From the IMG/VR virus record IMGVR_UViG_651053022_000004, positions 14,440-78,439 of that record: DNA of 64,000 bases, one strand, 5' to 3'. The position numbers and the translations under genes were made by a program. Under the pieces are notes generated by a model. The model did not search any database, had not been told where the DNA came from, and saw nothing but the letters and a program-made list of their open reading frames with translations. Source of the stretch: a virus (Duplodnaviria; Heunggongvirae; Uroviricota; Caudoviricetes). Of the stretch, positions 16,867-64,000 are shown piece after piece. The first letter of the stretch is position 1. Every line of letters begins with the position of its first letter.

Positions 16867-16895
16867 GTCACTGACCGGAACAGATAAACCTGTCC

Positions 16896-39401: not shown

Positions 39402-39423
39402 ACTTGTCCAACGTGTTGGACAA
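39402..39423. promoter_or_regulatory. 22-bp palindrome cttgtccaac-gt-gttggacaag upstream of the module-3 HNH/terminase genes
   Basis: Perfect 10-bp inverted arms with 2-bp spacer, in a 460-bp non-coding spacer. Confidence 0.4.
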
Positions 39424-39544
39424 GCCTCTCCATTAGTGAGTTGTATTGATCACAACTCTACAAAGAATTCATTACTGGGTAGATGAAAATAGTTTCACTA
39501 TGAATGGAGGAGGCTATGTCGGTGGCTTCTTCATTGGAGTACAT

Positions 39545-39895: not shown

Positions 39896-40042
39896 TAACA
39901 GTTCCCATCTGTAGGGGAGGGGCAGGCCAAATCTCTGCAACCCTGGCTGCTCAGTACCGCCGCCTGACCTTTCCTCGCATCGCCGCAGGTTCGAAAACTT
40001 TTTTTTGGAATGTGATTAAATGATTGATAGGTAAAACCGATT

Positions 40043-42282: not shown

Positions 42283-42429
42283 AACAGCTTATTACTGATA
42301 TGACCGGGCTGATCGGTTTCGGTCTGCTCACTGCTGGCGTTTATCTGTATGCAGGTCTGCCAGCGTCTCTGATGCTGTCTGGCTGTTTGTTGCTGCTTTA
42401 TGCACTGGTGGTGTCCATGAGGAGAAAAC

Positions 42430-44248: not shown

Positions 44249-44262
44249 GGATACTACTGACG

Positions 44263-45480: not shown

Positions 45481-45501
45481 CCACTCGTTGTTCAGTTACA
45501 G

Positions 45502-45524
45502 ACCGCGCCGACGCGGTTTTTTTA
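45502..45524 (+). terminator. hairpin accgcg-ccga-cgcggt plus T7 after the capsid gene
   Basis: Read directly from the sequence. Confidence 0.55.
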
Positions 45525-45556
45525 TGCCCGCACAGTGTTGCGGGCAGGAGTTTCTG

Positions 45557-45874
45557 ATGGCAGCAATAGTGGAAAAACTCAGGGCGCAGTGCCGTATTGA
45601 TACAGATGATGCAACTGATGATGAGTTACTGATGCTGTATTTCCGGGCTGCCTGCCGCAAGGCAGAAAATTTTATCAACCGTAAGCTTTATGAGGAGACG
45701 GTGCCGGAAGGTGATCCTGAAGGGGTGCTTATAGCTGATGATGTTTTGCTGGCGCTCATGTTGCTGGTCGGGCACTGGTACGAAAACCGGGAAAATTCCT
45801 CAGATGTCAGCAAGGCACCAGTCCCGTTTGGTTTTTCTTCTCTGCTGGAGCCTTATCGTTTTATTCCTTTGTAG
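45557..45874 (+). CDS. head-tail connector protein (gp6-like)
   Basis: 105 aa from ATG 45557, RBS CAGGAG. Confidence 0.7.
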   Translation: MAAIVEKLRAQCRIDTDDATDDELLMLYFRAACRKAENFINRKLYEETVPEGDPEGVLIADDVLLALMLLVGHWYENRENSSDVSKAPVPFGFSSLLEPYRFIPL

Positions 45875-45882
45875 GAGGAGAC

Positions 45883-46221
45883 ATGCAGGCGGGCAGATTA
45901 CGTGATCGCGTAATTATTCTGAATGTCACCACCGCCCGCTCTCCGTCAGGGCATCCGGTGGAGACGGTGACGGAGGGAGCTACCGTATGGGCAGAAGTTA
46001 AGGGTATCAGCGGGAGGGAGATAATCTCAGGCGGAGCAGAAACCGCTCAGGCTACGGTCAGAGTCTGGATGAGATTCCGGCGCGATGTGACAGCGACTTC
46101 ACGTCTGAAAGTGCTGACCGGTGCATTTAAAGGGGCCATTCTGGGTATAGAAGGTCCACCAATACCGGATGCACGCGCTACCCGGCTTGAAATACTCTGC
46201 AGCCTGAAGGGGAATGTGTGA
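45883..46221 (+). CDS. head closure / head-tail adaptor protein
   Basis: 112 aa; paralogous to 28278..28628. Confidence 0.72.
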   Translation: MQAGRLRDRVIILNVTTARSPSGHPVETVTEGATVWAEVKGISGREIISGGAETAQATVRVWMRFRRDVTATSRLKVLTGAFKGAILGIEGPPIPDARATRLEILCSLKGNV

Positions 46222-46667
46222 TGGATTTCAGTCTTGATTTTTCCGGCCTGGCGGATATTGCACGGGATTTGGAGACGCTCAGCAGGGCAGAAAACAATAA
46301 GGTTCTGCGCGATGCCACCCGTGCCGGTGCTGAAGTTATGCGGGATGCAGTTGTTGAACGTGCGCCGGAGCGAACCGGGAAACTGAAGAAAAATGTGGTT
46401 GTTCTCACTCAGCGTTCAAAGCGTCGGGGGGAAATTATCTCGGGTGTCCACATTCGCGGACGGAACCTGCGAACCGGAAACAGTGATAACAGCATGAAAG
46501 CCAGCGATCCCCGAAATGCATTTTACTGGCGCTTTGTGGAGCTGGGAACGATAAACATGCCCGCGCATCCATTCATTCGCCCGGCTTTCGATACGACAGA
46601 GGAACTGGCAGCACGGATTGCCATACAGCGAATGAATCAGGCTATTGATGAGGTCTTAAGTAAATGA
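46218..46667 (+). CDS. HK97 gp10-family tail component
   Basis: 149 aa; paralogous to 28625..29071. Confidence 0.72.
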   Translation: MMDFSLDFSGLADIARDLETLSRAENNKVLRDATRAGAEVMRDAVVERAPERTGKLKKNVVVLTQRSKRRGEIISGVHIRGRNLRTGNSDNSMKASDPRNAFYWRFVELGTINMPAHPFIRPAFDTTEELAARIAIQRMNQAIDEVLSK

Positions 46668-47008
46668 GAGAGGCCACACTGTATTCCCTGTTGTCTCAGC
46701 TGGCCGGAGGACAGGTTTATCCTTATGTGGTCCCACTGACGGAGGGAAAGCCTGCGGTATCTCCGCCGTGGCTGGTGTTTTCTGTGGTGTCTGACACGGC
46801 ATCTGATGTGCTTGATGGGCAGGCTGAATCCAGAATTACCGTGCAGATCGATGTCTGGGCGACAGTACCTGATGACGCAGATAATATTCGTGAGCAGGCG
46901 CTTGATGCGGTAAGAAAACTGGCACCCTCCGTTATTTCTAAAACGCAGGGTTATGATCCTGACTCCCGTCTGAGCAGAGCCACGCTTGAATTTCAGGTAA
47001 TAGCCTGA
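46664..47008 (+). CDS. DUF3168-like tail completion protein
   Basis: 114 aa; paralogous to 29068..29412. Confidence 0.7.
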   Translation: MREATLYSLLSQLAGGQVYPYVVPLTEGKPAVSPPWLVFSVVSDTASDVLDGQAESRITVQIDVWATVPDDADNIREQALDAVRKLAPSVISKTQGYDPDSRLSRATLEFQVIA

Positions 47009-47039
47009 GGTCATTAATGATTTTACCCACCCGCCGCTG

Positions 47040-47061
47040 GCGGGTTTTTTTATTTTCAGGA
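47040..47061 (+). terminator. hairpin cccgcc-gct-ggcggg plus T7 upstream of the major tail gene
   Basis: Read directly from the sequence; equivalent to 29442-29463. Confidence 0.5.
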
Positions 47062-47068
47062 GACGAGT

Positions 47069-47773
47069 ATGTCCTCTAATTTTGAGCGTTCGCAACTGAC
47101 GAAAATTATGATTTCGTCTGCACCGGTAACAGCAGAAACCCTGGATTCTGCCAGCTATCTTGGCCTGAGCTGTACAATCAAAGAGGTGCAGTTTACCGCA
47201 GGACAAAAGCAGGATATTGATGTCACCACGCTGTGTTCTGTTGAGCAGGAAAATATTAACGGTCTTGGTGCCGCGTCAGAGATTTCCATGTCAGGCAACT
47301 TTTATCTGAATGCTGCCCAGAACGCGTTGCGCAGTGCCTATGACAATGACACCACGTATGGCTTTAAAGTTATTTTTCCGTCAGGCAACGGATTTACCTT
47401 TATGGCAGAGGTGCGTCAGCATACCTGGTCTGCAGGAACCAATGGTGTTGTGGCTGCAACGTTTTCCTTGCGCCTGAAAGGTAAACCTGTGCTGACGACA
47501 GAGCCGCTGAAAGTGAAGGCCGATTTAAAAAGCACGCTGCGGGTTGCTTCCGGAGCGAAACTTGAAATGGCGGTTGAGGCTGCGGGTGGTGTGCCGCCTT
47601 ATTCTTATGTCTGGAAGAAAGGTGGTTCTCCTGTTTCCGGACAGACGGCGGCAACGTTCAGTAAGGCATCGGCAGTATCCGGTGATGCGGGTGCATATAC
47701 CTGCGAGATTTCTGATTCAGCAAGCCCGGTTAACAAAGTGACCTCCACTTCCTGCACTGTAACCGTCAGTTAA
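47069..47773 (+). CDS. major tail tube protein with C-terminal Ig-like domain
   Basis: 234 aa; paralogous to 29479..30195. Confidence 0.8.
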   Translation: MSSNFERSQLTKIMISSAPVTAETLDSASYLGLSCTIKEVQFTAGQKQDIDVTTLCSVEQENINGLGAASEISMSGNFYLNAAQNALRSAYDNDTTYGFKVIFPSGNGFTFMAEVRQHTWSAGTNGVVAATFSLRLKGKPVLTTEPLKVKADLKSTLRVASGAKLEMAVEAAGGVPPYSYVWKKGGSPVSGQTAATFSKASAVSGDAGAYTCEISDSASPVNKVTSTSCTVTVS

Positions 47774-47787
47774 TGAGGATGGATGTG

Positions 47788-48159
47788 ATGACTAAAAATA
47801 TCCGTAATCTGGCACTGGCAACGATGTCGGGGTTTCGCCATAAAACCGTTGATGTGCCTGAATGGGAGGGAGCAACGGTTGTGTTACGGGAACCTTCTGC
47901 AGAAGCCTGGTTGCGCTGGCAGGAGATCGTTAAAGCAAAAGATGATGAGACACCGTTATCCGTTGCGGAGCGCGCCCGCCGAAATCTGGAGGCAGATGTT
48001 GAACTGTTCATTGATGTTCTGTGTGATACCGGACTGCAACCCGTATTTTCAGAGGATGATCGTGAACAGGTGATTGCCGTGTATGGCCCGGTGCATGCGC
48101 GGCTTCTTCGGCAGTCTCTGGAACTGATCAGTGATGCCGGCGAGGTTAAAAAAAAGTAG
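47788..48159 (+). CDS. tail assembly chaperone (G-like)
   Basis: 123 aa from ATG 47788; ends at slippery A AAA AAG. Confidence 0.75.
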   Translation: MTKNIRNLALATMSGFRHKTVDVPEWEGATVVLREPSAEAWLRWQEIVKAKDDETPLSVAERARRNLEADVELFIDVLCDTGLQPVFSEDDREQVIAVYGPVHARLLRQSLELISDAGEVKKK

Positions 48160-48170
48160 CGCTTCCGGGG

Positions 48171-48461
48171 ATGCGTTTTCTGATGATGCTGGCGCTCAGG
48201 ATGGGGCGCACATTGTCAGAGTTACGCCGGGAAATGTCCGCATCAGAAATCATGATGTGGGCAGAATTTGACAGGTTCAGCCCGCTGGGGGACGAACGGG
48301 CTGATATCCGGGCTGCCCAGATTGTTTCAGCTGTTTACGGTGCGCAGGGGGTCAAAGTGCCACTGAATGATGCGCTTCTTCAGTGGGAGAAGGAGCAGAC
48401 AGAAGGCGTATCAGATCCATTTGCCGGACTGGAAAACGCGCTTTTAATAGTGTCTCAGTGA
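48171..48461 (+). CDS. tail assembly protein T-like segment, reached by -1 frameshift
   Basis: Slippery A AAA AAG at 48150-48156; the -1 frame continues into MRFLMMLALRMGRTLSELRR... Confidence 0.7.
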   Translation: MRFLMMLALRMGRTLSELRREMSASEIMMWAEFDRFSPLGDERADIRAAQIVSAVYGAQGVKVPLNDALLQWEKEQTEGVSDPFAGLENALLIVSQ

Positions 48462-48501
48462 GTCAACATAACCGCTTCGGCGGTTTTTTTTCGTCCGGAG
48501 A

Positions 48502-51500
48502 ATGAGTGTGGCGACATTACGTGAACTGATTATTAAAATCTCGGCAAATTCCCGGTCATTCCAGTCAGAGATCTCCCGGGCTTCGCGTATGGGGCAGGAT
48601 TACTACCGTACCATGCAGAACGGAGGCCGGCAGTCCGCTGCTGCATCCCGTGAAATGCGGCGTGCACTGGCAGAAGTGACGGATCAGATAAATACAGCTA
48701 AATCTTCGGCACTGAATATGGCGGGGGCATTTGCCGGGGCTTTTGCTACCGGTCATCTTATTTCTTTCGCCGATGAGTGGAATTCAGTAAATGCCCGTCT
48801 GAAGCAGGCCTCACAGTCCAGTGATGATTTTCAGGCATCACAGCGTGAATTAATGGCGATCAGCCAGAGAACGGGGACGGCGTTTTCTGATAACGCCAGC
48901 CTTTTTGCCCGTTCTGCAGCTTCCATGCGGGAGTATGGTTACAGTTCTGAGGAGGTACTGAAAGTCACCGAGGCGATCTCCACGGGCCTGAAATTATCCG
49001 GTGCCAGTACAGCAGAAGCCAGTTCGGTGATCACGCAGTTCAGTCAGGCACTGGCGCAGGGAGTGCTGCGCGGTGAAGAGTTTAACTCGGTGAATGAGAA
49101 CGGCGATCGTGTTATTCGTGCGCTGGCTGCGGGAGTGGGGGTTGCCCGTAAGGATCTGAAGGCCATGGCGGATAACGGAAAGTTGACCGCCGATAAGGTT
49201 GTTCCTGCACTGATTAGTCAGCTTGGGGCATTACGTGATGAATATGCGGCAATGCCTGATACGGTTTCATCCTCTGCAACCAAAGTTGAAAACGCCTTTA
49301 TGGCCTGGGTTGGTGGTGCGAACGAGGCAAGCGGAGTGACGAAGACGCTCTCCGGTGTGCTGAATGGTATTGCAGGCAATATTGACACTGTGGCAACCGC
49401 TGCCGGTGCTCTGGTTGCCGTCGGGGTAGCCCGATATTTTGGCAATATGGCGTCTTCTGCTGGATCTGCAACTGCCGGATTAATTACTGCAGCCAGAAAC
49501 GAAGTGGCTCTTGCGGAAGCGCAGCTCCGGGGGACACAGATAGCAACAGCCAGGGCGCGTGCGGCGGTTTATCGTGCGCAACAGGCGGTTGTTGCTGCTC
49601 GCGGTACCGAAAGGCAGGCAGCCGCAGAAGCGAAACTGGCTGCTGCCCAGGCATCACTTACCCGTAATATTGCGGCCAGAACAGCAGCACAGACAACGCT
49701 GAATACTGTCACGTCAGTGGGAAGTCGTCTGTTAAGTGGAGCACTGGGACTGGTTGGTGGGGTGCCGGGGCTTGTCATGCTGGGGGCCGCGGCCTGGTAC
49801 ACGATGTATCAGAATCAGGAGCAGGCCAGAGAATCTGCACGCCAGTATGCCGCAAAAATCGACGAAATTCGCCAGAAAACGTCGGCAATGTCGCTTCCTG
49901 AAGCGTCAGATAATGAGGAAAAGACGCGGCAGGCACTTGATGAGCAAAACAGGTTAATTGACGAGCAGAAAAGTAAGATTAAATCCTTACAGGAAAAAAT
50001 TGCTGGCTATCAGTATGTGCTGGCAAACCCGGGCTGGACAACCGATAACGGTTTTATGATTAACCACATGACGTCGGTAAAAACAGTCACAGAAGGGCTT
50101 GCAGAAGCAACAAATCAACTGGCAGTTGAACAGTCCCGTCTCACACAAATGCAGGGCAAAGCGCAATCCATTCAGGATGTGCTTGCCGGGCTGGAGGAGC
50201 GGCGGGTTGCGTTGATCCGTCAACAGGCGGCGGAACAAAACAAAGCGTATCAGTCCCTGTTGATCATGAATGGGCAGCATACCGAGTTTAATCGCCTTCT
50301 TGGGCTTGGTAATGAATTACTTCAGCAGCGACAGGGGCTGGTGAATGTACCGTTACGGCTACCACAGGCAACCCTGGATGATAAACAGCAGACCGCACTG
50401 AATAACAGCAAGCGCGAACTGGCTCTGTCCCGCCTTAAGGGGGAAGCGCGTGAGCGTGCCCGACTGGGCTATGCTGCGGATGATCTCGGCTTTGTGGGAG
50501 AGGCGTATCAGACAGCCAGACAGAATTATATCAATAACTCACTGGATGCCTGGCGAAATAACCAGGCAAATAAACCCAAAGCGCATAAAAAGACCGAAGC
50601 GGAAAAAACAGAAGATATTTATAAACGGCTGATTAAACAGCAAAAAGAACAGATAGCACTGGCAGGGCAGAATACTGAACTGGCTAAGATGAAATATCAG
50701 GTCAGTCAGGGCGAATTATCAACCCTGTCAGAAGCGCAGAAAAAAACGCTTTTGCAGAATGCAGCACTCATCGACCAGAAAAAGATTCGTGAGCAGCTTG
50801 CTGCGTATGAAAGCAGCCTGGCGGACAGTAATGCCAGTACCCGGGCGTCTAACGACGCGCAGTTACTGGGATATGGTGAAGGCTCACGGATGCGTGAACG
50901 ACTCCAGGAAATGTGGAGTATCCGGCATGAGTTTGAGCAGAAAAATAACGAGCTGCTGAGACAGTATCAGGCCGGAGAAATTGAAGAAGCCCTGTGGAAA
51001 CAGGAGAAAGAACTGAATAAAAAATATCTGGAAGAGCGTCTCAGCGATCAGCAGGATTATTATGCAAAGGCCGATGCTTTACGTAATAACTGGAATGCAG
51101 GACTCCAGGAGGGGCTGACCAACTGGGCAGACAGTGCCACCGATTATGCTTCGCAGGCGGCAGATGCTGTCGTTTCCACTATGGACGGGCTGGTATCAAA
51201 TATTTCCGATGCGCTGGCCGGAAATGTTGTGGACTGGAGAAACTGGGGGAGTTCAATTCTCCAGGAAGTTTCAAAAATTCTGATGAATGCGGCCATTGTT
51301 AACGGACTGAAGTCACTCTCCGGTGCCGGAGGGTGGCTTGGTACGGTCGGCGGATGGATTTCGGGGGCGGTGGCAAACGCAAAAGGTGGTGTTTACACAT
51401 CGGCAAATCTGAGTGCTTACAGTAACACTATTGTGGATACACCGACGTATTTTGCTTTTGCGAAAGGTGCCGGGCTGATGGGCGAGGCCGGGCCTGAAGC

Positions 51501-51735
51501 TATCATGCCACTGACACGGGCAGCGGACGGCTCTCTTGGGGTCAGAGCCATTGGCAATGTGAATAGTGGCGGGGGGGTTGTTTATTCTCCCGTGTATCAC
51601 ATCAGCATTCAGAATCAAGGGAGCAATGGCGAGATAGATGCGCGCTCAGCCAGGGGACTGGTGGATCTGATCGACAGCAGGGTTGTGTCAATTATGCAGT
51701 CATCGCGTCGGGATGGAGGATTGTACAGTGCCTGA
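48502..51735 (+). CDS. tail tape measure protein
   Basis: 1077 aa; paralogous to 30937..34179. Confidence 0.9.
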   Translation: MSVATLRELIIKISANSRSFQSEISRASRMGQDYYRTMQNGGRQSAAASREMRRALAEVTDQINTAKSSALNMAGAFAGAFATGHLISFADEWNSVNARLKQASQSSDDFQASQRELMAISQRTGTAFSDNASLFARSAASMREYGYSSEEVLKVTEAISTGLKLSGASTAEASSVITQFSQALAQGVLRGEEFNSVNENGDRVIRALAAGVGVARKDLKAMADNGKLTADKVVPALISQLGALRDEYAAMPDTVSSSATKVENAFMAWVGGANEASGVTKTLSGVLNGIAGNIDTVATAAGALVAVGVARYFGNMASSAGSATAGLITAARNEVALAEAQLRGTQIATARARAAVYRAQQAVVAARGTERQAAAEAKLAAAQASLTRNIAARTAAQTTLNTVTSVGSRLLSGALGLVGGVPGLVMLGAAAWYTMYQNQEQARESARQYAAKIDEIRQKTSAMSLPEASDNEEKTRQALDEQNRLIDEQKSKIKSLQEKIAGYQYVLANPGWTTDNGFMINHMTSVKTVTEGLAEATNQLAVEQSRLTQMQGKAQSIQDVLAGLEERRVALIRQQAAEQNKAYQSLLIMNGQHTEFNRLLGLGNELLQQRQGLVNVPLRLPQATLDDKQQTALNNSKRELALSRLKGEARERARLGYAADDLGFVGEAYQTARQNYINNSLDAWRNNQANKPKAHKKTEAEKTEDIYKRLIKQQKEQIALAGQNTELAKMKYQVSQGELSTLSEAQKKTLLQNAALIDQKKIREQLAAYESSLADSNASTRASNDAQLLGYGEGSRMRERLQEMWSIRHEFEQKNNELLRQYQAGEIEEALWKQEKELNKKYLEERLSDQQDYYAKADALRNNWNAGLQEGLTNWADSATDYASQAADAVVSTMDGLVSNISDALAGNVVDWRNWGSSILQEVSKILMNAAIVNGLKSLSGAGGWLGTVGGWISGAVANAKGGVYTSANLSAYSNTIVDTPTYFAFAKGAGLMGEAGPEAIMPLTRAADGSLGVRAIGNVNSGGGVVYSPVYHISIQNQGSNGEIDARSARGLVDLIDSRVVSIMQSSRRDGGLYSA

Positions 51736-52069
51736 GCCTGAAGTTTTTAACTGGATCCCCCGTGAGGGGATGGAGACGACACGAAAGCCATCAGTTATTA
51801 CGGTAAAGTTTGGTGACGGATATGAACAGAGACGGGCTGGTGGTCTGAATGCGGATCTGAAAACGTTTAAACCGGTATTTCGTGTCACAGATGAATATTC
51901 CCGTGCCGCGCTGGACAGTTTTTTATCCCGTCATGCCGGGATTCGTGCTTTTTTGTGGCGTCCGCCAAAACACAACAGGACTGTCCGGGTTGTCTGCAGG
52001 GAGTGGAGCATTTCGGATAATGCCATGTATACCGATTTTAACTGTACCTTTGAAGAGGTCACTCACTGA
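51728..52069 (+). CDS. minor tail protein M-like
   Basis: 113 aa from GTG 51728 overlapping the TMP stop, by analogy with 34172. Confidence 0.85.
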   Translation: MPEPEVFNWIPREGMETTRKPSVITVKFGDGYEQRRAGGLNADLKTFKPVFRVTDEYSRAALDSFLSRHAGIRAFLWRPPKHNRTVRVVCREWSISDNAMYTDFNCTFEEVTH

Positions 52070-52758
52070 TGCAGGATATACAGCAGGAAACACTCAATGA
52101 GTGCACTAAAACGGAGCAATCCGCGCTGATCGTGCTCTGGGAAATTGATCTGACAGAGGTCGGCGGAGATCGTTATTTCTTCTGTAATGAGCAGAACGAA
52201 AAAGGTGAACCGGTCACCTGGCAGGGGCGGCAGTATCAGGCATACCCCATTCAGGGGACGGGATTTGAACTGAACGGTAAGGGCAGTGCTGCCCGTCCGA
52301 CACTGACGGTCTCTAACCTGCACGGCATGGTCACCGGGATGGCGGAAGACCTGCAGAGTCTGGTCGGCGGAACGGTGGTCAGGCGTAAGGTTTACGCCCG
52401 TTTTCTGGATGCGGTGAACTTCGTCAACGGAAACAGTGACGCCGACCCGGAGCAGGAGGTGATCAGCCGCTGGCGCATCGAGCAGTGCAGCGAACTGAGT
52501 GCGGTCAGTGCTTCTTTTGTACTGTCCACGCCGACGGAAACGGATGGTGCGGTTTTTCCGGGGCGCATCATGCTGGCCAACACCTGTACCTGGACCTATC
52601 GCGGTGATGAGTGCGGTTATAGCGGTCCGGCTGTCGCGGATGAATAGACGTCCGATATCACGAAAGATAAATGCAGCAAATGCCTGAGTGGCTGTAAGTT
52701 TCGCAATAACGTCGGCAACTTTGGCGGCTACCTTTCCATCAACAAACTTTCGCAGTAA
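52069..52758 (+). pseudogene. minor tail protein L-like, frameshifted near codon 191
   Basis: Lambda-L-like to ...GYSGPAVADE then stop; compared with 15061-15090 an 11-bp stretch (tgaccagccaa) is missing; the remaining L C-terminus (TSDITKDKCSKCLSGCKFRNNVGNFGG) is in another frame. Confidence 0.8.
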
Positions 52759-52763
52759 ATCCC

Positions 52764-53482
52764 ATGACAGAGACAGAATCAGCGATTCTGGCGCACGCCC
52801 GGCGATGTGCGCCAGCGGAGTCGTGCGGCTTCGTGGTGAGAACGCCGGAGGGGGAAAGATATTTCCCCTGCGTGAATATCTCCGGTGAGCCGGAAGATTA
52901 TTTCCGGATGTCGCCGGAGGACTGGCTGCAGGCCAAAATGCAGGGTGAGATTGTGGCGCTGGTCCACAGTCACCCCGGTGGTCTGCCCTGGCTGAGTGAG
53001 GCTGACAGGCGGCTGCAGGTGCAGAGCGATTTGCCGTGGTGGCTGGTCTGCCGGGGTGAGATTCATAAATTCCGCTGTGTGCCGCATCTTACCGGGCGGT
53101 GCTTTGAGCACGGGGTGACGGACTGTTACACGCTGTTCTTGAGATGCCGGATTTTCATCGCGGGGATGACTGGTGGCGTCACGGTCAGAATCTCTATCTG
53201 GATAATCTGGAGGCCACAGGGCTGTATCAGGTGCCGTTGTCATCAGCACAACCGGGCGATGTGCTGCTGTGCTGCTTTGGTTCATCGGTGCCGAATCATG
53301 CCGCCATTTACTGCGGCGACGGCGAGCTGCTGCACCATATTCCTGAACAACTGAGCAAACGAGAGAGGTATACCGACAAATGGCAGCGACGCACACACTC
53401 CCTCTGGCGTCACCGGGCATGGCACGCATCTGCCTTTACGGGGATTTGCAACGATTTGGCCACCGCATCGACCTTCGTGTGA
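52764..53482 (+). pseudogene. tail tip protein K-like, frameshifted by a small deletion at the position where the first K copy is truncated
   Basis: N-part reads to ...DCYTLF (53137), then cttgag joins directly to atgccggattttcatcg; the C-part (53144..53482, MPDFHRGDDWW...TGICNDLATASTFV) is lambda-K-like in another frame. Confidence 0.8.
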
Positions 53483-54027
53483 AAACGGGAGCCGAAGCTA
53501 TCCGGGCGCTGGCCACGCAGCTCCCGGCGTTTCGTCAGAAACTGAATGAGGGCTGGTATCAGGTGCGCATTGCCGGGCGTGATGCAGGCGAAAACGAATT
53601 ATCTGCCCGTCTTAATGAGCCGCTGGCAAATGGTGCCGTGATCCACATCGTGCCGCGTCTGGCGGGAGCTAAAAGTGGCGGTGTGTTTCAGGTGGTGCTG
53701 GGGGCGGCGCTGATTGCGGTGGCATGGTGGAACCCTGTGGGCTGGCTGGGTGCCGCGGCTGTATCGGGCATGTATGCGGCAGGGGCCAGTATGATCCTGG
53801 GTGGTGTGGCCCAGATGCTGGCACCGAAAGCCCGGACGCCCACAGCGACCAGCACGGATAACGGTAAGCAGAACACCTATTTCTCATCACTGGATAACAT
53901 GGTTGCCCAGGGCAATGTTCTGCCTGTTCTGTACGGTGAAATGCGCGTGGGGTCTCGTGTGGTTTCTCAGGAGATCAGCACGGCAGATGAAGGGGACGGT
54001 GGTCAGGTTGTGGTGATTGGCCGCTGA
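53380..54027 (+). CDS. I: tail assembly protein I
   Basis: 215 aa MAATHTLPLASPGMARICLYGDLQRFG...; matches lambda gpI start and C-terminus. Confidence 0.85.
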   Translation: MAATHTLPLASPGMARICLYGDLQRFGHRIDLRVKTGAEAIRALATQLPAFRQKLNEGWYQVRIAGRDAGENELSARLNEPLANGAVIHIVPRLAGAKSGGVFQVVLGAALIAVAWWNPVGWLGAAAVSGMYAAGASMILGGVAQMLAPKARTPTATSTDNGKQNTYFSSLDNMVAQGNVLPVLYGEMRVGSRVVSQEISTADEGDGGQVVVIGR

Positions 54028-54087
54028 TGCAAAATATTTCATGTGAAACCGCCTCCGGGCGGTTTTGTCGTTTATGGAGCATGACGA

Positions 54088-54232
54088 ATGGGCAAAGGAA
54101 GCAGTAAGGGGCATACCCCGCGCGAAGCGAAGGACAACCTGAAATCCACGCAATTACTGAGTGTGATCGATGCCATCAGCGAAGGGCCGATTGAAGGTCC
54201 GGTGGATGGATTAAAAAGCGTGCTGCTGGCGC
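54088..54232 (+). pseudogene. J 5' fragment (first ~48 codons), left copy of a 799-bp tandem duplication
   Basis: MGKGSSKGHTPREAKDNLKSTQLLSVIDAISEGPIEGPVDGLKSVLL then runs into a second copy of the K-end/I-start sequence. Confidence 0.7.
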
Positions 54233-54826
54233 ATCTGCCTTTACGGGGATTTACAACGATTTGGCCGCCGCATCGACCTTCGTGTGAAAACGGGGGCTGA
54301 AGCCATCCGGGCGCTGGCCACACAGCTCCCGGCGTTTCGTCAGAAACTGAGCGACGGCTGGTATCAGGTACGGATTGCCGGGCGTGATACAGGTGAAACG
54401 GAATTATCAGCCCGTCTTAATGAACCGCTGGCAAATGGTGCTGTGATCCATATCGTGCCGCGTCTGGCAGGAGCCAAAAGTGGCGGTGTGTTTCAGGCTG
54501 TGCTGGGGGCGGCTGTTATGGCGGTTGCTATATGGATGCCGGGGGTAGGAATTATGGCGAGTAATCTGCTGTTTTCTCTCGGTGCCAGTATGACGCTTGG
54601 CGGTGTTGCACAGATGCTGGCCCCTAAACCCAGAACCCCCCGCACACAGACAACGGATAACGGCAAACAGAACACCTATTTTTCTTCACTGGATAATATG
54701 GTTGCCCAGGGCAATGTTCTGCCCGTTCTGTACGGTGAAATGCGCGTGGGATCACGTGTGGTATCTCAGGAGATCAGCACAGCAGATGAAGGTGATGGTG
54801 GTCAGGTTGTGGTGATTGGTCGCTGA
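54233..54826 (+). pseudogene. I, 5'-truncated second copy
   Basis: Begins with the duplicated K 3' end (YNDLAAAS...), then an I sequence lacking its first ~17 codons; diverges from the 53380 copy in the hydrophobic middle. Confidence 0.7.
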
Positions 54827-54886
54827 TGAAAAACGTTTTATGTGAAACCGCCTCCGGGCGGTTTTATCGTTTATGGAGCATGACGA

Positions 54887-57800
54887 ATGGGTAAAGGCAG
54901 CAGTAAGGGGCATACCCCGCGCGAAGCGAAGGACAACCTGAAGTCCACGCAGCTGCTGAGTGTGATCGATGCCATCAGCGAAGGGCCGGTTGAAGGTCCG
55001 GTGGATGGATTAAAAAGCGTGCTGCTGAACAGTACACCGGTGCTGGACAGTGAGGGGAATACCAACATCTCCGGTGTTACGGTGGTGTTCCGGGCAGGTG
55101 AGCAGGAGCAGACACCGCCGGAGGGATTTGAATCCTCCGGTTCCGAGACGGTGCTGGGTACGGAAGTGAAATACGACACGCCGATCACCCGCACCATCAC
55201 GTCGGCAAACATCGACCGTCTGCGCTTTACGCCGGTGCTGGACAGTGAGGGGAATACCAATATATCCGGCGTCACGGTGGTGTTCCGGGCCGGTGAGCAG
55301 GAGCAGTCACCGCCGGAGGGATTTGAATCCTCCGGCTCCGAGACGGTGCTGGGTACGGAAGTGAAATATGACACGCCGATCACCCGGACCATCACGTCGG
55401 CAAACATCGACCGTCTGCGCTTTACCTTCGGTGTACAGGCACTGGTGGAAACCACCTCAAAGGGAGACAGGAATCCGTCGGAAGTTCGCCTGCTGGTTCA
55501 GATACAGCGTAACGGTGGCTGGGTGACGGAAAAAGACATCACCATTAAGGGCAAAACCACCTCGCAGTATCTGGCCTCGGTGGTGGTGGATAACCTGCCG
55601 CCGCGCCCGTTTAATATCCGGATGCGCAGGATGACGCCGGACAGCACCACAGACCAGCTGCTGAACAAAACGCTCTGGTCGTCATACACCGAAATCATCG
55701 ATGTGAAACAGTGCTACCCGAACACGGCACTGGTTGGCGTGCAGGTGGACTCGGAGCAGTTCGGCAGCCAGCAGGTGAGTCGTAATTATCATCTTCGCGG
55801 GCGCATTCTGCAGGTGCCGTCGAACTATAACCCGCAGACGCGGCAATACAGCGGTATCTGGGACGGAACGTTAAAACCGGCATACAGCAACAACATGGCC
55901 TGGTGTCTGTGGGATATGCTGACCCATCCGCGCTACGGCATGGGAAAACGTCTTGGTGCGGCAGATGTGGATAAATGGGCGCTGTATGTCATCGGCCAGT
56001 ACTGCGACCAGTCGGTGCCGGACGGCTTTGGCGGCACGGAGCCGCGCATTACCTGTAATGCGTACCTGACCACACAGCGCAAGGCGTGGGATGTGCTCAG
56101 TGATTTCTGCTCGGCGATGCGCTGTATGCCGGTATGGAACGGGCAGACGCTGACGTTCGTGCAGGACCGACCATCAGATAAGGTGTGGACCTATAACCGC
56201 AGTAATGTGGTGATGCCGGAGCCGTCGGATAATGTGTGGACCTATAACCGCAGTAATGTGGTGATGCCGGATGATGGCGCGCCGTTCCGCTACAGCTTCA
56301 GCGCCCTGAAGGACCGCCATAATGCCGTTGAGGTGAACTGGATTGACCCGGATAACGGCTGGGAGACGGCGACAGAGCTCGTGGAGGATACGCAGGCCAT
56401 TGCCCGTTACGGCCGTAACGTCACGAAGATGGATGCCTTTGGCTGTACCAGCCGGGGCTGACCCGGATAACGGCTGGGAAACGGCAACAGAGCTTGTGGA
56501 GGACACGCAGGCCATTGCCCGTTATGGTCGTAATGTCACGAAGATGGATGCCTTTGGCTGTACCAGCCGGGGGCAGGCACACCGCGCCGGGCTGTGGCTG
56601 ATTAAAACGGAGCTGCTGGAAACGCAGACCGTGGACTTCAGCGTGGGCGGTGGTCGTGTGCTGGCGGTGAGCAGCCAGACCCGGACGCTGACGCTCGACC
56701 GTGAAATCACGCTGCCATCCTCCGGCACCACGCTGATAAGCCTGGTTGACGGAAGTGGCAATCCGGTCAGCGTGCAGGTCCAGTCCGTCACCGACGGCGT
56801 GAAGGTGAAAGTGAGCCGGGTTCCTGACGGCGTTGCAGAATACAGCGTGTGGGGGCTGAAGTTGCCGACGTTGCGCCAGCGCCTGTTCCGCTGTGTGAGT
56901 ATCCGTGAGAACGACGACGGCACGTATGCCATCACCGCCGTGCAGCATGTTCCTGACGGTGTTGCTGAATACAGCGTATGGGGGCTGAAGCTGCCGACGC
57001 TGCGCCAGCGACTGTTCCGCTGCGTGAGTATCCGTGAAAACGACGACGGCACGTATGCCATCACCGCCGTGCAGCATGTACCGGAAAAAGAAGCCATCGT
57101 GGATAACGGGGCGCACTTTGACGGCGACCAGAGCGGCACGGTGAATGGTGTCACGCCGCCAGCGGTGCAGCACCTGGCCGCAGAAGTCACTGCAGACAGC
57201 GGGGAATATCAGGTGCTGGCGCGATGGGACACACCGAAGGTGGTGAAGGGCGTGAGCTTCCTGCTCCGTCTGACCGTAACAGCGGACGACGGCAGTGAGC
57301 GGCTGGTCAGCACGGCCCGGACGACGCCGGAAAAAGAGACCATCGTGGATAACGGGGCGCACTTTGACGGCGAACAGAGTGGCACGGTGAATGGTGTCAC
57401 GCCGCCCGCGGTGCAGCACCTGACCGCAGAAGTCACCGCAGACAGCGGGGAATATCAGGTGCTGGCGCGATGGGACACACCGAAGGTGGTGAAGGGGGTG
57501 AGCTTTATGCTTCGCCTGACCGTGGCAGCGGATGACGGCAGTGAGCGGCTGGTCAGCACGGCCAGGACGACGGAAACCACATACCGCTTCAGGCAACTGG
57601 CGCTGGGGAACTACAGGCTGACAGTCCGGGCGGTAAATGCGTGGGGGCAGCAGGGGGATCCGGCGTCGGTATCGTTCCGGATTGCCGCACCGGCAGCGCC
57701 ATCGCGGATTGAGCTGACGCCGGGCTATTTTCAGATAACCGCAACGCCACATCTTGCCGTTTATGACCCGACGGTACAGTTTGAGTTCTGGTTCTCGGAA

Positions 57801-58847
57801 AAGCGGATTGCGGATATCAGGCAGGTTGAAACCGCAGCCCGCTATCTTGGCTCGGCGCTGTACTGGATAGCTGCCAGTATCAATATCAAACCGGGCCATG
57901 ATTATTATTTTATCCGCAGTGTGAATACTGTTGGCAAATCGGCATTCGTGGAGGCTGTCGGTCGGGCGAGCGATGATGCGGAAGGTTACCTGGATTTTTT
58001 CAAAGGAGAAATCGGGAAAACACATCTGGCCCAGGAGCTGTGGACGCAGATTGATAACGGTCAGCTTGCGCCGGACCTGGCTGAAATCAGGACGTCCATT
58101 ACGAATGTCAGCAATGAAATCACGCAGACCGTCAATAAAAAACTGGAAAATCAGAGTGCGGCAATCCAGCAGATACAGAAAGTTCAGGTTGATACAAATA
58201 ATAACCTGAACAGCATGTGGGCCGTGAAACTGCAGCAGATGCAGGACGGACGCCTTTATATTGCGGGTATCGGTGCCGGTATTGAGAATACGCCAGCAGG
58301 AATGCAGAGTCAGGTGCTGCTGGCGGCAGACAGGATTGCGATGATTAATCCTGCGAATGGCAACACAAAGCCGATGTTTGTTGGTCAGGGCGATCAGATA
58401 TTTATGAATGAAGTGTTCCTGAAATATCTGACGGCTCCCACCATTACCAGCGGCGGTAATCCTCCGGCATTTTCCCTGACACCGGACGGGCGGCTGACGG
58501 CGAAAAATGCCGATATCAGCGGTAACGTGAATGCGAACTCCGGGACGCTCAACAACGTCACGATTAACGAGAACTGCCGGGTTCTGGGAAAACTGTCCGC
58601 GAACCAGATTGAAGGCGATCTCGTTAAAACAGTGGGCAAAGCTTTCCCCCGTGACTCCCGGGCACCGGAGCGGTGGCCATCAGGGACCATTACCGTCAGG
58701 GTTTATGACGATCAGCCGTTTGACCGGCAAATTGTTATTCCGGCTGTGGCATTCAGTGGCGCTAAGCATGAGAGAGAGCATACTGATATTTACTCCTCAT
58801 GCCGTCTGATAGTGTTATTGATATGCCTGCCGGTCACGGTCACATGA
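54887..58847 (+). pseudogene. J: host specificity protein J, disrupted by several imperfect tandem duplications and a frameshift
   Basis: Lambda-J-like throughout; in-frame duplications of 198, 51, 129 and 246 bp and an out-of-frame 116-bp duplication (56344-56575) that creates a stop at 56459-56461; the frame resumes in ORF 56343..58847. Confidence 0.8.
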
Positions 58848-59239
58848 CACTGGAGTTTTCGGTGTCAGCATGGCTGGTAAATAACTGGTATCCCACAGCA
58901 AGTATCAGCGATTTGCTGGTTGCGTTATTGATATGCCTGCCGGTCACGGTCACATGACGCTGGAGTTTTCGGTGTCAGCATGGCTGGTAAATGGCTGGTA
59001 TCCCACAGCAAGTATCAGCGATTTGCTGGTTGGATTGTTATTCCGGCGGTGGCATTCAGCGGCGCTAAACATGAGAAAGAGCATACTGATATTTACTCCT
59101 CATGCCGTCTGATAGTGCGGAAAAACGGTGCTGAAATTTATAACCGTACCGCGCTGGATAATACGCTGATTTACAGTGGTGGTGATGAAGAAAGCCACTG
59201 CAGGCATCACGATTAGCTGAATTTTATAACCCAGATACG

Positions 59240-59263
59240 GGCACCAGAAATGGTGCCTTTTTT
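59240..59263 (+). terminator. hairpin ggcacc-agaaat-ggtgcc plus T-run after the J 3' fragments
   Basis: Read directly from the sequence; identical structure at 61110-61133. Confidence 0.55.
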
Positions 59264-59287
59264 ATTGCAGAAAAGCGAGAGGTAATT

Positions 59288-59887
59288 ATGCGTAAATTAT
59301 GTGCTGTTATTCTATCCGCAGTAGTCTGGCTGGTTGCCGCTGGTACGCCAGCGAGCGCAGCAGAGCATCAGTCCACACTAAGCGCCGGGTATCTTCAGAC
59401 CCATACTGATATGCCAGGCAGTGATGACCTGAAGGGCATTAACGTGAAATACCGTTATGAATTTACGGACACGCTGGGGCTGGTGACGTCATTCAGTTAT
59501 GCCAATGCCAAAGATGAGCAAAAAACGCATTACAGCGATACCCGCTGGCATGAAGATTCAGTGCGTAACCGCTGGTTCAGCATGATGGCGGGGCCATCTG
59601 TACGCGTGAATGAATGGTTCAGTGCTTATGCGATGGCAGGTGTGGCTTACAGCCGTGTTTCGACGTTCTCCGGGGATTATCTCCGCGTAACTGACAACAA
59701 GGGGAAAACGCACGATGTGCTGACCGGAAGTGATGACGATCGCCACAGCAACACGTCTCTGGCGTGGGGAGCTGGCGTGCAGTTTAACCCGACCGAATCC
59801 GTGGCCATTGATATTGCTTATGAAGGCTCCGGCAGTGGCGACTGGCGCACTGACGGTTTCATCGTGGGTGTCGGTTATAAGTTCTGA
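59288..59887 (+). CDS. lom: outer membrane protein Lom (Ail/Lom family)
   Basis: 199 aa; signal peptide MRKLCAVILSAVVWLVAAGTPASA; C-terminus DIAYEGSGSGDWRTDGFIVGVGYKF as in lambda Lom; RBS GAGAGG. Confidence 0.9.
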   Translation: MRKLCAVILSAVVWLVAAGTPASAAEHQSTLSAGYLQTHTDMPGSDDLKGINVKYRYEFTDTLGLVTSFSYANAKDEQKTHYSDTRWHEDSVRNRWFSMMAGPSVRVNEWFSAYAMAGVAYSRVSTFSGDYLRVTDNKGKTHDVLTGSDDDRHSNTSLAWGAGVQFNPTESVAIDIAYEGSGSGDWRTDGFIVGVGYKF

Positions 59888-59913
59888 TTAGCCAGGTAAC
59901 ACAGTGTTATGAC

Positions 59914-59941
59914 AGCCCGCCGGTTCAGGCGGGCTTTTTTG
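59914..59941 (+). terminator. hairpin agcccgcc-ggttca-ggcgggct plus T6 after lom
   Basis: Perfect 8-bp stem read directly from the sequence. Confidence 0.6.
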
Positions 59942-59974
59942 TGCACAGAAAACCCCCAGCTAGGCTGGGGGTTC

Positions 59975-61090
59975 CGCATTCGCAGTGTGAACACCGTTGG
60001 CAAATCGGCATTTGTGGAGGCTGTTGGCCAGCCGAGTGATGATGCATCCGGCTATCTGGATTTTTTCAAAGGAGAGATAGGGAAAACCCATCTGGCTCAG
60101 GAGTTGTGGACGCAGATTGATAACGGTCAGCTTGCGCCTGACCTGGCTGAAATCAGGACGTCCATTACGGATGTCAGCAATGAAATCACGCAGACCGTCA
60201 ATAAGAAACTGGAAGACCAGAGTGCAGCGATCCAGCAGATACAGAAGGTTCAGGTTGATACAAATAATAACCTGAACAGCATGTGGGCTGTGAAGCTGCA
60301 GCAGATGCAGGACGGACGCCTTTATATCGCGGGTATTGGTGCCGGTATTGAGAATACCCCTGACGGTATGCAGAGTCAGGTGCTGCTGGCGGCGGACAGG
60401 ATTGCGATGATTAATCCTGCGAATGGCAATACAAAGCCGATGTTTGTTGGGCAGGGCGATCAGATATTCATGAACGAAGTGTTCCTGAAATATCTGACGG
60501 CTCCCACCATTACTGGCAATCCCCCAACGTTTTCACTGACACCTGATGGTCGACTTTCTGCGAGAAATGCGGATATCAGCGGTAACGTGAATGCGAACTC
60601 CGGGACGCTCAATAATGTCACGATTAACCAGAACTGTCGGATTCTGGGAAAACTGTCAGCTAACCAGATTGAAGGTGATATTGTCAAAACGGTGGGAAAA
60701 GCCTTTCCGAGAAATGGCAGTTATGCCAGCGGTACAATAACGGTCACTGTGTACGATGACCAGGCTTTTGACCGTCAGATAGTCGTCCCCCCCGTTCTGT
60801 TTCGCGGTGGTAAGCATGAAAACTTCAACAGCAACAACCAACAGTCATACTGGTATTCAACCTGTAAGCTGCAGGTGCTGAAGAACGGACAGGAAATCTT
60901 TCAGCAACCCGCGACGGATGTCAGCAGGGTATTTTCATCAGTCATTGATATGCCTGCCGGACACGGCCATGTCACCCTGACTTTCAATGTTTCTTCATAT
61001 GGTGCAAATAACTGGACGCCAACGACCAGTATCAGCGACCTTCTTGTTGTCGTGATGAAGAAATCAACAGCCGGCATCAGTATCAGTTGA
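59975..61090 (+). other. orphan J C-terminal (receptor-binding) cassette without its own start or RBS
   Basis: From ~59980 the sequence is about 95% identical to J nt ~57905-58640 ([16 protein letters not shown]...[20 protein letters not shown]), then has a distinct, complete C-terminus ending ...[11 protein letters not shown]-stop; preceded by two hairpins. Confidence 0.75.
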
Positions 61091-61109
61091 ATTTTAAAAC
61101 CCAAATTCG

Positions 61110-61133
61110 GGCACCAGAAATGGTGCCTTTTTT
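61110..61133 (+). terminator. hairpin ggcacc-agaaat-ggtgcc plus T-run after the J cassette
   Basis: Same element as 59240-59263. Confidence 0.55.
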
Positions 61134-61148
61134 ATTTGTGGAGTGAAT

Positions 61149-63419
61149 ATGGCAGTACAGATTTCAGGTGTGCTGAAAGACGGTGCAGGAAAACCGATAC
61201 AGAACTGCACCATTCAGCTCAAAGCAAAACGTAACAGCACCACAGTTGTGGTGAACACGGTGGCCTCAGAAAATCCGGATGAAGCCGGACGTTACAGCAT
61301 GGATGTCACCGTGTATGAGGATTCTAAGCCGGGGACATTGAATGATTTTCTGGGCGCTGCAACAGAAGATGATGTTTGTCCGGAGGCACTGTATCGTTTT
61401 GAAAAGATGGTGGAAGAGGCGGCACGCAACGCTGAAGCCGCCTCTCAGAGCGCAGCGGCGGCAAAGAAATCCGAAACTGCAGCGGCATCATCGAAGAACG
61501 CGGCGAAAACCTCAGAAACGAATGCAGCTAACAGCGCACAGGCGGCAGCGACCTCAAAGACTGCATCGGCAAACTCCGCGACAGCAGCCAAAAAATCAGA
61601 AACCAACGCGAAAAATAGCGAGACAGCCGCAAAGACGAGCGAAACCAACGCAAAGTCCAGCCAGACGGCAGCGAAAACCAGCGAAACGAATGCCAAAGCC
61701 AGTGAAACTGCGGCAAAAAACAGCCAGGTTGCAGCAGCCCAAAGCGAGAGCGCGGCAGCCGGTTCTGCGACTTCAGCAGCTGGATCAGCAACTGCTGCGG
61801 CTAACAGCCGGAAAGCTGCGAAGACGAGTGAAACTAACGCAAAGTCCAGCCAGACGGCAGCGAAGACCAGCGAAACGAATGCCAAAGCCAGCGAAACTGC
61901 GGCGAAAAACAGTCAGGATGCAGCAGCCCAAAGCGAGAGTGCTGCAGCTGGTTCTGCAAGCGCGGCGGCTGCTTCTGCCACTGCATCAGCCAACAGTCAA
62001 AAAGCAGCAAAAACCAGTGAAACCAATGCAAAGACAAGCGAGACTGCAGCGGCGAACTCGGCGAAAGCATCCGCTGCAAGCCAGACCGCTGCAAAAGCAA
62101 GTGAAGACGCAGCCAGAGAGTATGCAAGCCAGGCAGCAGATCCGTATAAATATGTCTTACAGCCGCTGCCTGATGTGTGGATACCGTTTAACGATTCACT
62201 GGATATGATTACGGGTTTTTCGCCATCTTATAAAAAGATAGTTATTGGTGACGATGAAATAACAATGCCAGGCGACAAGATTGTTAAGTTTAAACGTGCT
62301 TCAACAGCAACGTATATTAATAAGTCCGGCCAACTCAAGCTTGCTGAAGTTGACGAACCGCGATTTGAGCGCGATGGCTTATTGATTGAAGGACAGAGGA
62401 CAAATTATCTGAGGAACTCAAATAAACCAGACTCATGGACTGTTCATTCCGCACTGAATAAAACATTTGGCACTGATAAACAGGGGTTCAATTATGCCAC
62501 GGTGACACCCACGGAAAGTATAGTGGGAACAACAGGTGGCTATACTGTGCATGGTGTGGTTGCAGCAGACAGATTCCCGCTGGCAAGTGGTGAATGTTTC
62601 ACTTTTTCGTGCCGGGTTAAAGGCGCTAAAGCACGATGCAGGTTAAGAGTTTCAGTTATTATTGGTGGAACAGATACCTTCTCTGCTGACTCTTATCTTG
62701 ATCTGGATACCCGGATCGCAACAGTAAGCGGTAATACATCCCTTATAACAGCCAAAGCTGAACAACAGGGCGAGTGGACCTACTATGAGGCCACTTATAC
62801 AGCTAATACGGACATTGATACCGTTAACTGTGCTTTTTATATGACAAATAAAATAAGTAATGAGACATTCTATGATGACTCAACATTAACCATGACGACG
62901 CCGCAAATTGAACTGGGCAATACGGCATCGTCATTTATTGTAACTACAATGCCAACAACACGCGCAAGTGATGTAGTTACTATCCCATCGCAGAATAACC
63001 TGTCAACACGGCCTTTTACGGTATTGTGCGAAGTAAGCAGGAACTGGAGTACACCGCCCAATGTTGCGCCAAGGATATTTGATGTTGGAGGGCACAGTAT
63101 TGATGATAATTATTTATCGCTGGGGTTTGTTGCAACAGGAAAGATAAGCGCCAACGTAGGAATGGTTCAGCCACAAATTGCCTCAGATGGAGAAAGGTTC
63201 ATTGTGGGTGTGAGAGCTAAATCTGATTTATCAGTAAATGCAATATGCAATGGTAATTATACAACAAACCTTAATGGTAAAATATTTGGAGTTACAGCAA
63301 CATCGTACCGGTTTGGTGGGCAGACCGCAGCAGGAACGCGTCATTTGTTTGGACACATCAGAAATTTCAGAGTCTGGTTTAAAGAATTAAATGACAGGCA
63401 AATCAAGGAGGCAGTATGA
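61149..63419 (+). CDS. stf: side tail fiber protein with Ala/Ser/Thr-rich internal repeats and a distinct C-terminal domain
   Basis: ATG 61149 after GGAG; N-terminus MAVQISGVLKDGAGKPIQNCTIQLKAKRNSTTVVVNTV is lambda Stf-like; 63-aa imperfect repeat AAKTSETNAKSSQTAAKTSETNAKASETAAKNSQ x2; C-terminal ~420 aa unlike lambda Stf. Confidence 0.85.
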   Translation: MAVQISGVLKDGAGKPIQNCTIQLKAKRNSTTVVVNTVASENPDEAGRYSMDVTVYEDSKPGTLNDFLGAATEDDVCPEALYRFEKMVEEAARNAEAASQSAAAAKKSETAAASSKNAAKTSETNAANSAQAAATSKTASANSATAAKKSETNAKNSETAAKTSETNAKSSQTAAKTSETNAKASETAAKNSQVAAAQSESAAAGSATSAAGSATAAANSRKAAKTSETNAKSSQTAAKTSETNAKASETAAKNSQDAAAQSESAAAGSASAAAASATASANSQKAAKTSETNAKTSETAAANSAKASAASQTAAKASEDAAREYASQAADPYKYVLQPLPDVWIPFNDSLDMITGFSPSYKKIVIGDDEITMPGDKIVKFKRASTATYINKSGQLKLAEVDEPRFERDGLLIEGQRTNYLRNSNKPDSWTVHSALNKTFGTDKQGFNYATVTPTESIVGTTGGYTVHGVVAADRFPLASGECFTFSCRVKGAKARCRLRVSVIIGGTDTFSADSYLDLDTRIATVSGNTSLITAKAEQQGEWTYYEATYTANTDIDTVNCAFYMTNKISNETFYDDSTLTMTTPQIELGNTASSFIVTTMPTTRASDVVTIPSQNNLSTRPFTVLCEVSRNWSTPPNVAPRIFDVGGHSIDDNYLSLGFVATGKISANVGMVQPQIASDGERFIVGVRAKSDLSVNAICNGNYTTNLNGKIFGVTATSYRFGGQTAAGTRHLFGHIRNFRVWFKELNDRQIKEAV

Positions 63420-63694
63420 AAGATTTAACTTTGAAATTTCCTGGTAACAGAGAGTTTAAATCCTTCCTGTCATCTCTTGACTGGGAGGAGGATGAAGACC
63501 TCCAGAATAAACTGTTAGTCGATGAAATTGGTTTCACCTACACAGAAACAGGGGTAACAGAAGAGGGAGAACCTGTCTGTGTCCGGAATGACGGTTATTT
63601 TGTCAACATTCGCATTCTTGATGACTTGTTTGATGTTTCTGTATTCTCTGATTATGTCGTGGAGCTGGAAACACCGCTTCGGGAATGGAGCTGA
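63416..63694 (+). CDS. hypothetical acidic protein downstream of stf, in the place of tfa
   Basis: 92 aa MKDLTLKFPGNREFKSFLSSLDWEEDEDLQNKLLVDEIGF...; start overlaps the stf stop; no Tfa-like motifs. Confidence 0.4.
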   Translation: MKDLTLKFPGNREFKSFLSSLDWEEDEDLQNKLLVDEIGFTYTETGVTEEGEPVCVRNDGYFVNIRILDDLFDVSVFSDYVVELETPLREWS

Positions 63695-63706
63695 AAGGAG
63701 GAAATA

Positions 63707-64000
63707 ATGGATATAAGCCCCTTACTTCATGCACTTTGTGCTGTGGCTGCGCAAACACTGGTTGGTCTTTTTACCGGAAACTGGGCTTACGGAGCGATAG
63801 CCGGTTGTACGTTCTTCATTGCGCGTGAACATACCCAGGCAGAATATCGCTGGATTGAAATGTTCGGGCATGGCAAGCGAATGAATATGCCGTGGTGGGG
63901 CGGTTTTGATCCGCGAGCTTGGGATGTGGCAAGCCTGATGGATTTTGCTGTGCCGGTGGTGGCGTGTCTGCTGGTCTGGCTGTTGGTTAATCGTGGGTGA
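63707..64000 (+). CDS. hypothetical membrane protein
   Basis: 97 aa with two hydrophobic segments (LHALCAVAAQTLVGLF and FAVPVVACLLVWLLV); RBS AGGAGG upstream; stop at the window end. Confidence 0.4.
   Translation: MDISPLLHALCAVAAQTLVGLFTGNWAYGAIAGCTFFIAREHTQAEYRWIEMFGHGKRMNMPWWGGFDPRAWDVASLMDFAVPVVACLLVWLLVNRG

Follow-up and report, generated by a model that had tools for sequence, protein, structure and literature searches.

Gene J, the host-specificity gene of a lambdoid K-I-J-lom-stf module, contains a series of imperfect head-to-tail repeats in the window (the whole stretch of DNA analysed, 64,000 nt), which raises the question of where the two copies of each repeat came from and whether they were ever joined in a cell. 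The copies of each unit were compared with each other and with natural prophages, the junctions between them were located, and the arrangement was sought in public genome, virome, and metagenome collections.

Imperfect Repeats in Gene J

Repeat finding and TRF, both applied to positions 54000-59500, detected five head-to-tail imperfect pairs inside J, all of them far beyond chance and with 0 indels between copies:

55033-55425, + strand: pair with a period of 195 bp and an identity of 94% (repeat search and TRF)
56171 and 56222, + strand: pair with a period of 51 bp and an identity of 94%
56344-56572, + strand: pair with a period of 115 bp and an identity of 93%
56820-57079, + strand: pair with a period of 129 bp and an identity of 93%
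57081-57572, + strand: pair with a period of 246 bp and an identity of 93%

The preliminary description had reported five tandem duplications in J, and they are present where it placed them according to both methods; its periods of 51, 129, and 246 bp are retained, whereas those given as 198 and 116 bp are corrected to 195 and 115 bp, respectively. It had also stated that one unit interrupts the reading frame, which is borne out for the 115-bp unit, as the open reading frame that begins at the J start codon (ATG at 54887) stops at 56459-56461, just past the junction of that unit. Features of the same kind that it had overlooked include two more duplications, a deletion, misordered pieces, and a second J C-terminus:

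53425-54228 and 54229-55027, + strand: duplication of about 799 bp covering the 3' end of K, I, and the 5' end of J (repeat search)
56648-56650, + strand: in-frame deletion of 72 nt, with B 19626 joined to B 19697 (2 nt shared; A, B, and C are the reference prophages defined below)
58812-58922 and 58922-59032, + strand: duplication of 110 bp (TRF, period 110)
58814, + strand: forward jump of 62 nt, causing a second frameshift with a stop at 58845-58847
59033-59181, + strand: out-of-order piece, C 32900-33048 (repeat search)
59977-61136, + strand: second J C-terminal third, downstream of lom

In the K-I-J-lom regions of the natural prophages A, B, and C, TRF found no tandem repeat.

Allelic Origin of the Repeat Copies

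When the two copies of the 246-bp unit were searched separately, copy 1 proved to be 100% identical to the J gene located at 2.14 Mb in E. coli strain 4/0, and copy 2 was 100% identical to another J gene of the same strain, located at 1.29 Mb; both copies also have exact matches in many other genomes. Three lambdoid prophages of E. coli ST131 genomes were taken as references, namely A (L004), which adjoins sitABCD, B (L003), which adjoins zinT, and C (L005), which comes from TUM9975, and the window was tiled with exact runs of at least 25 nt from any of them. Such runs contain 63,905 of the 64,000 bases, and the uncovered 95 bases consist of four isolated SNPs and 91 nt of a portal-gene repeat. 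Between 53 and 64 kb, every base is tiled by A, B, or C, and private substitutions are absent. In this tiling, all seven duplicated units pair two different prophages, and the copy-to-copy divergence of about 6% therefore represents the pre-existing allelic difference among A, B, and C, and not mutation that followed duplication.

The differences between copies are concentrated at third codon positions (36 of 44) and cause few amino-acid changes. All seven differences in the 115-bp unit fall at third positions with 0 amino-acid changes, and the two copies of the 129-bp unit likewise encode the same amino acids. This spectrum is that of allelic variation under purifying selection on separate working genes, which is the opposite of decay.

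Prophage A is 100% identical in at least 40 records among the matches listed, several of which are labelled O25b:H4-ST131, and B occurs at 100% identity in EC958, JJ1886, 4/0, and many other genomes. Strain IPCEC48 carries B (100%) and C (99.9%) at positions 690 kb apart and on opposite strands, both as complete prophages with early regions and an intact J each. Co-residence at separate loci is seen pairwise, with A and B together in strain 4/0 and B and C together in IPCEC48. The natural J alleles of the three prophages, with lengths of 3396, 3483, and 3474 nt, are intact and repeat-free.

Structure of the 53-61 kb Region

The exact runs resolve the region from K to stf into the following pieces, in which the copies of each duplicated unit are assigned to their prophage:

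53164-54228, + strand: B-version K 3' end, I, and J 5' end, an exact run of 1065 nt (B 17301-18365) containing copy 1 of the 799-bp unit (B) from about 53425
53380-54027, + strand: open reading frame of the first I copy (Pfam Lambda_tail_I)
54229-55035, + strand: A-version K 3' end, I, and J 5' end, an exact run of 807 nt (A 17567-18373) containing copy 2 of the 799-bp unit (A)
54284-54826, + strand: second I gene (Pfam Lambda_tail_I), within the A-version block
55033-55227, + strand: copy 1 of the 195-bp unit, B allele (exact run 54990-55230 = B 18328-18568)
55228-55422, + strand: copy 2 of the 195-bp unit, A allele, in frame (exact run 55228-55779 = A 18371-18922)
56171-56271, + strand: 51-bp pair, in frame; A allele in copy 1 (to 56220), B allele at the start of copy 2 (56221-56295), with 0 nt of microhomology
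56344-56572, + strand: 115-bp pair, frameshifting; A allele in copy 1 (to 56457), B allele in copy 2 (from 56458), with 0 nt of microhomology
56820-57077, + strand: 129-bp pair, in frame; copy 1 is the B allele (run 56648-56950 = B 19697-19999) and copy 2 the A allele (run 56948-57079 = A 19868-19999)
57081-57572, + strand: 246-bp pair, in frame; B allele in copy 1, A allele in copy 2, both exact runs
57702-58814, + strand: distal J mosaic, running from the A allele to C 31869-32746 and then to B 21030-21407, and ending in the 62-nt jump
58812-59032, + strand: 110-bp pair; copy 1 is C (exact run C 33046-33156) and copy 2 is B (exact run B 21469-21579)
59182-59976, + strand: B-allele J 3' end and lom (59288-59887), an exact run of B 21582-22376
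59977-61306, + strand: second J C-terminal third and the start of stf, A 20588-21923

The B-version block ends bluntly at B 18365, 141 nt into J, and is followed by the A-version block with 0 nt of microhomology between 54228 and 54229. The stretch 54229-55230 was considered as a single natural allele, for which the best natural match reaches 99.1%; the tiling instead divides it into A sequence and then B sequence, both matched exactly. At the junction of the 195-bp unit, 3 nt (TAC) are shared. The piece at 59033-59181 is found upstream of the 110-bp unit in a natural J, and here it stands downstream of it.

The locus resembles the lambda gpJ and lambdoid K-I-J-lom-stf module in that natural J, I, K, lom, and stf alleles match its pieces at 100% identity. 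It differs from the natural lambdoid J, a single open reading frame of 3.4-3.5 kb that is free of tandem repeats, in being split and in containing duplicated, deleted, and misordered blocks. Switches at homologous positions, from A to B at 54990-55035 and from A to C to B at 57702-58576, are similar to those of natural lambdoid mosaicism; however, natural mosaics are collinear and keep the reading frame, whereas the sequence here jumps backward and forward at non-homologous blunt junctions.

The B-allele lom piece extends about 33 nt (59944-59976) beyond the end of the B match to the insertion-free prophage L001 and then stops. In the natural B prophage, an IS200C transposase gene lies just downstream of that lom end, and this gene is absent from the window. 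The edges of repeats are typical end points of short-read contigs.

Junctions and Searches for the Arrangement

Microhomology at the 15 non-homologous junctions ranges from 0 to 3 nt with a mean of 1.07 nt, and seven of the 15 share no nucleotide at all; about 0.67 nt is expected for random blunt joins by an estimate of this analysis. The seven duplication junctions account for values of 0, 3, 0, 0, 3, 1, and 1 nt. The direct repeats that slippage needs at the borders of a unit are missing, as are overlaps of k-mer length such as a naive join in a de Bruijn graph would leave. A constant k-mer overlap was considered as a de Bruijn signature and rejected, as the identical stretch from the last difference of copy 1 to the first of copy 2 varies in length (about 50 nt in the 129-bp unit and about 19 nt in the 246-bp unit, for example) and the junctions overlap by 0-3 nt. 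No Ns or gaps separate the copies; the window consists only of A, C, G, and T, and the junctions are direct.

Matches to the 5.5-kb region come from thousands of E. coli prophages and from about 270 phage records, and the duplicated arrangement is found in none of 5,426 complete E. coli genomes and 50,697 phage records. The best natural matches break into 12 BLAST pieces that span 4,418 bp, compared with 5,501 bp in the window. Searches with four 34-mers and one 46-mer showed that five duplication junctions (195, 51, 115, 129, and 246 bp) are absent from IMG/VR, in which an interior 34-mer used as a control was found. The 246- and 115-bp junctions are absent from the GTDB representatives, and the 246- and 129-bp junctions are absent from the JGI metagenomes. 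Exact look-up of the products of two chimeric open reading frames in an index of 153 billion genes returned no record.

Three Late Operons in Series

Beyond J, the exact runs divide the entire window into a small number of large modules:

1-15602, + strand: A 1681-17282, late operon up to K
15602-17653: B and C lysis genes
17652-39068, + strand: C 10653-31906, from the lysis genes to about nt 2183 of J
39069-54228, + strand: B 3172-18365, from HNH to nt 141 of J
54229-59181, + strand: fine patchwork of A, B, and C pieces of J
59182-59976, + strand: 3' end of the B-allele J, with lom
59977-64000: A 20588-24368 for the most part (J C-terminus and stf); stf includes B-allele stretches at 61460-62215

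The window reads as the late region of prophage A into which the homologous C and B regions have been stacked. The motif in which one version of a block is followed by another recurs at several scales, from 51-799 bp in the J area through about 1 kb in the lysis genes to about 20 kb in the late operons, and allele stacking is not specific to J. Early or lysogeny genes (integrase, repressor, replication) are absent from the 64-kb window.

At 15160-15630, the K gene of prophage A breaks off at A 17282, and the iraM-holin intergenic region of B follows at a blunt join. Within 36886-39078, the J gene of prophage C breaks off after about 2183 nt and meets, again at a blunt join, the sequence upstream of the HNH endonuclease gene of B; C-derived J sequence reappears at 57702 (C 31869), 18.6 kb farther on. 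The lysis region at 15602-18413 is a mosaic of B and C in which the sequence jumps backward at 17653, from B 2564 to C 10653; the result is a repeat spaced by about 1.2 kb (16901-17200 and 18114-18413, 88% identity), in which the B version of the YdfR/lysozyme block is followed by the C version. The iss gene region of B (B 2565-3171) is absent from the window.

Two other repetitive stretches were noted. The portal gene of the C module contains 164 extra nt at 27149-27461, where the natural gene itself is internally repetitive (90-bp period), and the extra sequence splits the portal open reading frame into 25521-27197 and 27049-27945. The 91 nt that match none of A, B, and C are located here (27149-27220, 27324-27338, and 27372-27375). 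No complete E. coli genome contains the portal arrangement as one piece, and some natural portal genes are longer. The portal repeat may be an instance of the stacking seen in J. The N-terminal part of stf contains imperfect tandem repeats of 42 bp and 189 bp at 61580-62051 (72-83% identity); natural references give the same self-similar matches, and the repeats appear to be an ordinary feature of stf that is unrelated to the finding in J. Single-base differences from the A and C references occur at 6845, 6943, 25711, and 33291; the portal repeat aside, the window has no private point differences other than these four SNPs.

Coding Consequences

J is split into at least three fragments, and the receptor-binding end of the protein is encoded again downstream:

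54887-56461, + strand: first J open reading frame, 524 aa
56343-58847, + strand: second J open reading frame, 834 aa
59909-61090, + strand: third, separate C-terminal J open reading frame, 393 aa, in which the receptor-binding end is repeated (Phage_Tail_Tip, Ig_GpJ_C)

A single uninterrupted gpJ open reading frame of about 1,130-1,160 aa is not present here. Across the three fragments, the full set of gpJ Pfam domains (FNIII-A_GpJ, Phage-tail_3, Ig_J, Ig_J_second, Phage_Tail_Tip, and Ig_GpJ_C) is matched far above the cut-offs, and the 195- and 246-bp duplications cause FNIII-A_GpJ and Ig_J to be hit in two stretches each. None of this, whether the split J, the double I, or the extra J C-terminus, should be read as biology.

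Origin of the Arrangement

The region is very probably a non-biological chimera of three paralogous ST131 prophages that arose through assembly, consensus, or concatenation, and we infer that its pieces were juxtaposed in silico rather than in a cell. Each piece has an allelic origin in A, B, or C, the junctions are blunt, and the arrangement is absent from the public data searched. Homologous blocks of the three prophages stand in series in one sequence, with allele switches at homologous positions between jumps; a backward jump onto the allele of another prophage creates an apparent imperfect tandem duplication, in which one allele is followed by the other, and a forward jump creates a deletion. 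A candidate cause is the collapse of reads or contigs from the three prophages, in which both versions of poorly aligned blocks may have been kept, and in which both versions of a block may elsewhere have been dropped to leave a deletion. Other candidate causes are the joining of contigs without overlap trimming and a deliberately spliced sequence. The absence of Ns between copies and of k-mer-length overlaps at the junctions does not fit a simple assembler error, and blunt joins of 0-3 nt are also expected from replicative template switching. An assembly artefact in a repetitive region had been among the possibilities raised in the preliminary description; the artefact is upheld in substance, but the repetitive region consists of three paralogous prophages and not of repeats internal to J.

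Heterotype false duplication, in which divergent haplotypes are assembled side by side, is a documented class of error (VGP; Ko et al. 2022, PMC9516828), and it is recognized by lower read depth per copy, discordant or clipped reads at the junction, and Ns between the copies on a scaffold (PMC9516828). The region resembles such cases in the adjacency of two divergent versions, in version-specific k-mers, in spurious gene fragments, and in frame breaks; the copies carry A-, B-, or C-specific sequence, and these versions co-reside pairwise in genomes. The region differs from the VGP cases in that paralogous prophages within a haploid bacterium take the place of haplotypes and in that the units are very small (51-799 bp), numerous, and ungapped, with no N gap between copies.

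A real but rearranged molecule, that is, a dead chimeric prophage formed by a serial burst of template switching (MMBIR/FoSTeS-like) or by repeated illegitimate recombination among three co-resident prophages in an ST131 cell, is unlikely. The prophages would perhaps have been induced together, and blocks of 51 bp to about 20 kb would have been stacked too recently for point mutations to appear. The co-occurrence of the source prophages in ST131 genomes (A and B in 4/0, B and C in IPCEC48), the large number of jumps in either direction at short spacing, with microhomology of 0-3 nt, and the lack of any later mutation at 53-64 kb are consistent with a recent complex event, and the 15 clustered jumps share with MMBIR/FoSTeS the clustering of template switches in both directions with little junction homology. 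However, MMBIR/FoSTeS junctions usually share about 2-5 nt or more, whereas seven of the 15 junctions here share none, the mean of 1.07 nt hardly exceeds the value estimated for random blunt joins, and nothing places the event in DNA rather than in software. The product would be a molecule with three late operons and no early region, and the tested junctions are absent from every public genome, virome, and metagenome set scanned. A non-biological origin is far more economical than a biological one, because biology would need at least 15 illegitimate, non-homologous joins and many homologous switches among three distant loci, hundreds of kilobases apart, to produce one molecule.

Two explanations that would place the repeats within a single J gene are less probable again. 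The preliminary description had suggested replication slippage or repair scars in a decaying gene, by which segments within one J would be duplicated and the copies would then diverge; this is very improbable and is refuted by the identities of the alleles, the lack of private mutations, and the distribution of the differences over codon positions. The head-to-tail geometry, the absence of indels between copies, and the one frame-breaking unit are as slippage would leave them, but in each unit the two copies exactly reproduce different natural alleles that existed beforehand, with zero private substitutions, their differences are largely synonymous, the junctions have no flanking direct repeats, and I, K, the lysis genes, and whole operons show the same pattern. 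A device for host-range diversification, with cassette-like or DGR-like repeats in a receptor-binding protein, is scarcely credible, even though the gene that carries the repeats determines host specificity and the frame is kept in four of the five reported units. Two frameshifts break up J, the substitutions are of all types, mostly transitions, and show no adenine bias, the repeats are found mostly in the N-terminal and central FNIII/Ig parts and not only in the receptor-binding C-terminus, identical stacking occurs in non-receptor genes, and no natural J has such repeats. A TR/VR pair of a DGR was also considered and rejected, since the differences are not confined to template adenines; no reverse transcriptase is listed in the annotations of the A, B, and C prophages, whose late and lysis regions tile all but 95 bases of the window.

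Implications for Lambdoid Prophages

With high probability, the J repeats are not a real genomic feature. Taken at face value, they would point to a host-range gene that is unusually unstable or diversifying, and they would inflate the counts of J, I, and lom fragments and of pseudogenes; the 64-kb stretch is therefore unsuited to inferences about gene content, pseudogenes, or host range until it is checked against reads. The combination of exact-run painting from related complete genomes, a check for private mutations, and the codon-position spectrum of copy differences provides a quick, read-free diagnostic for false duplications in genomes that carry multiple prophages, such as those of ST131 or O157.
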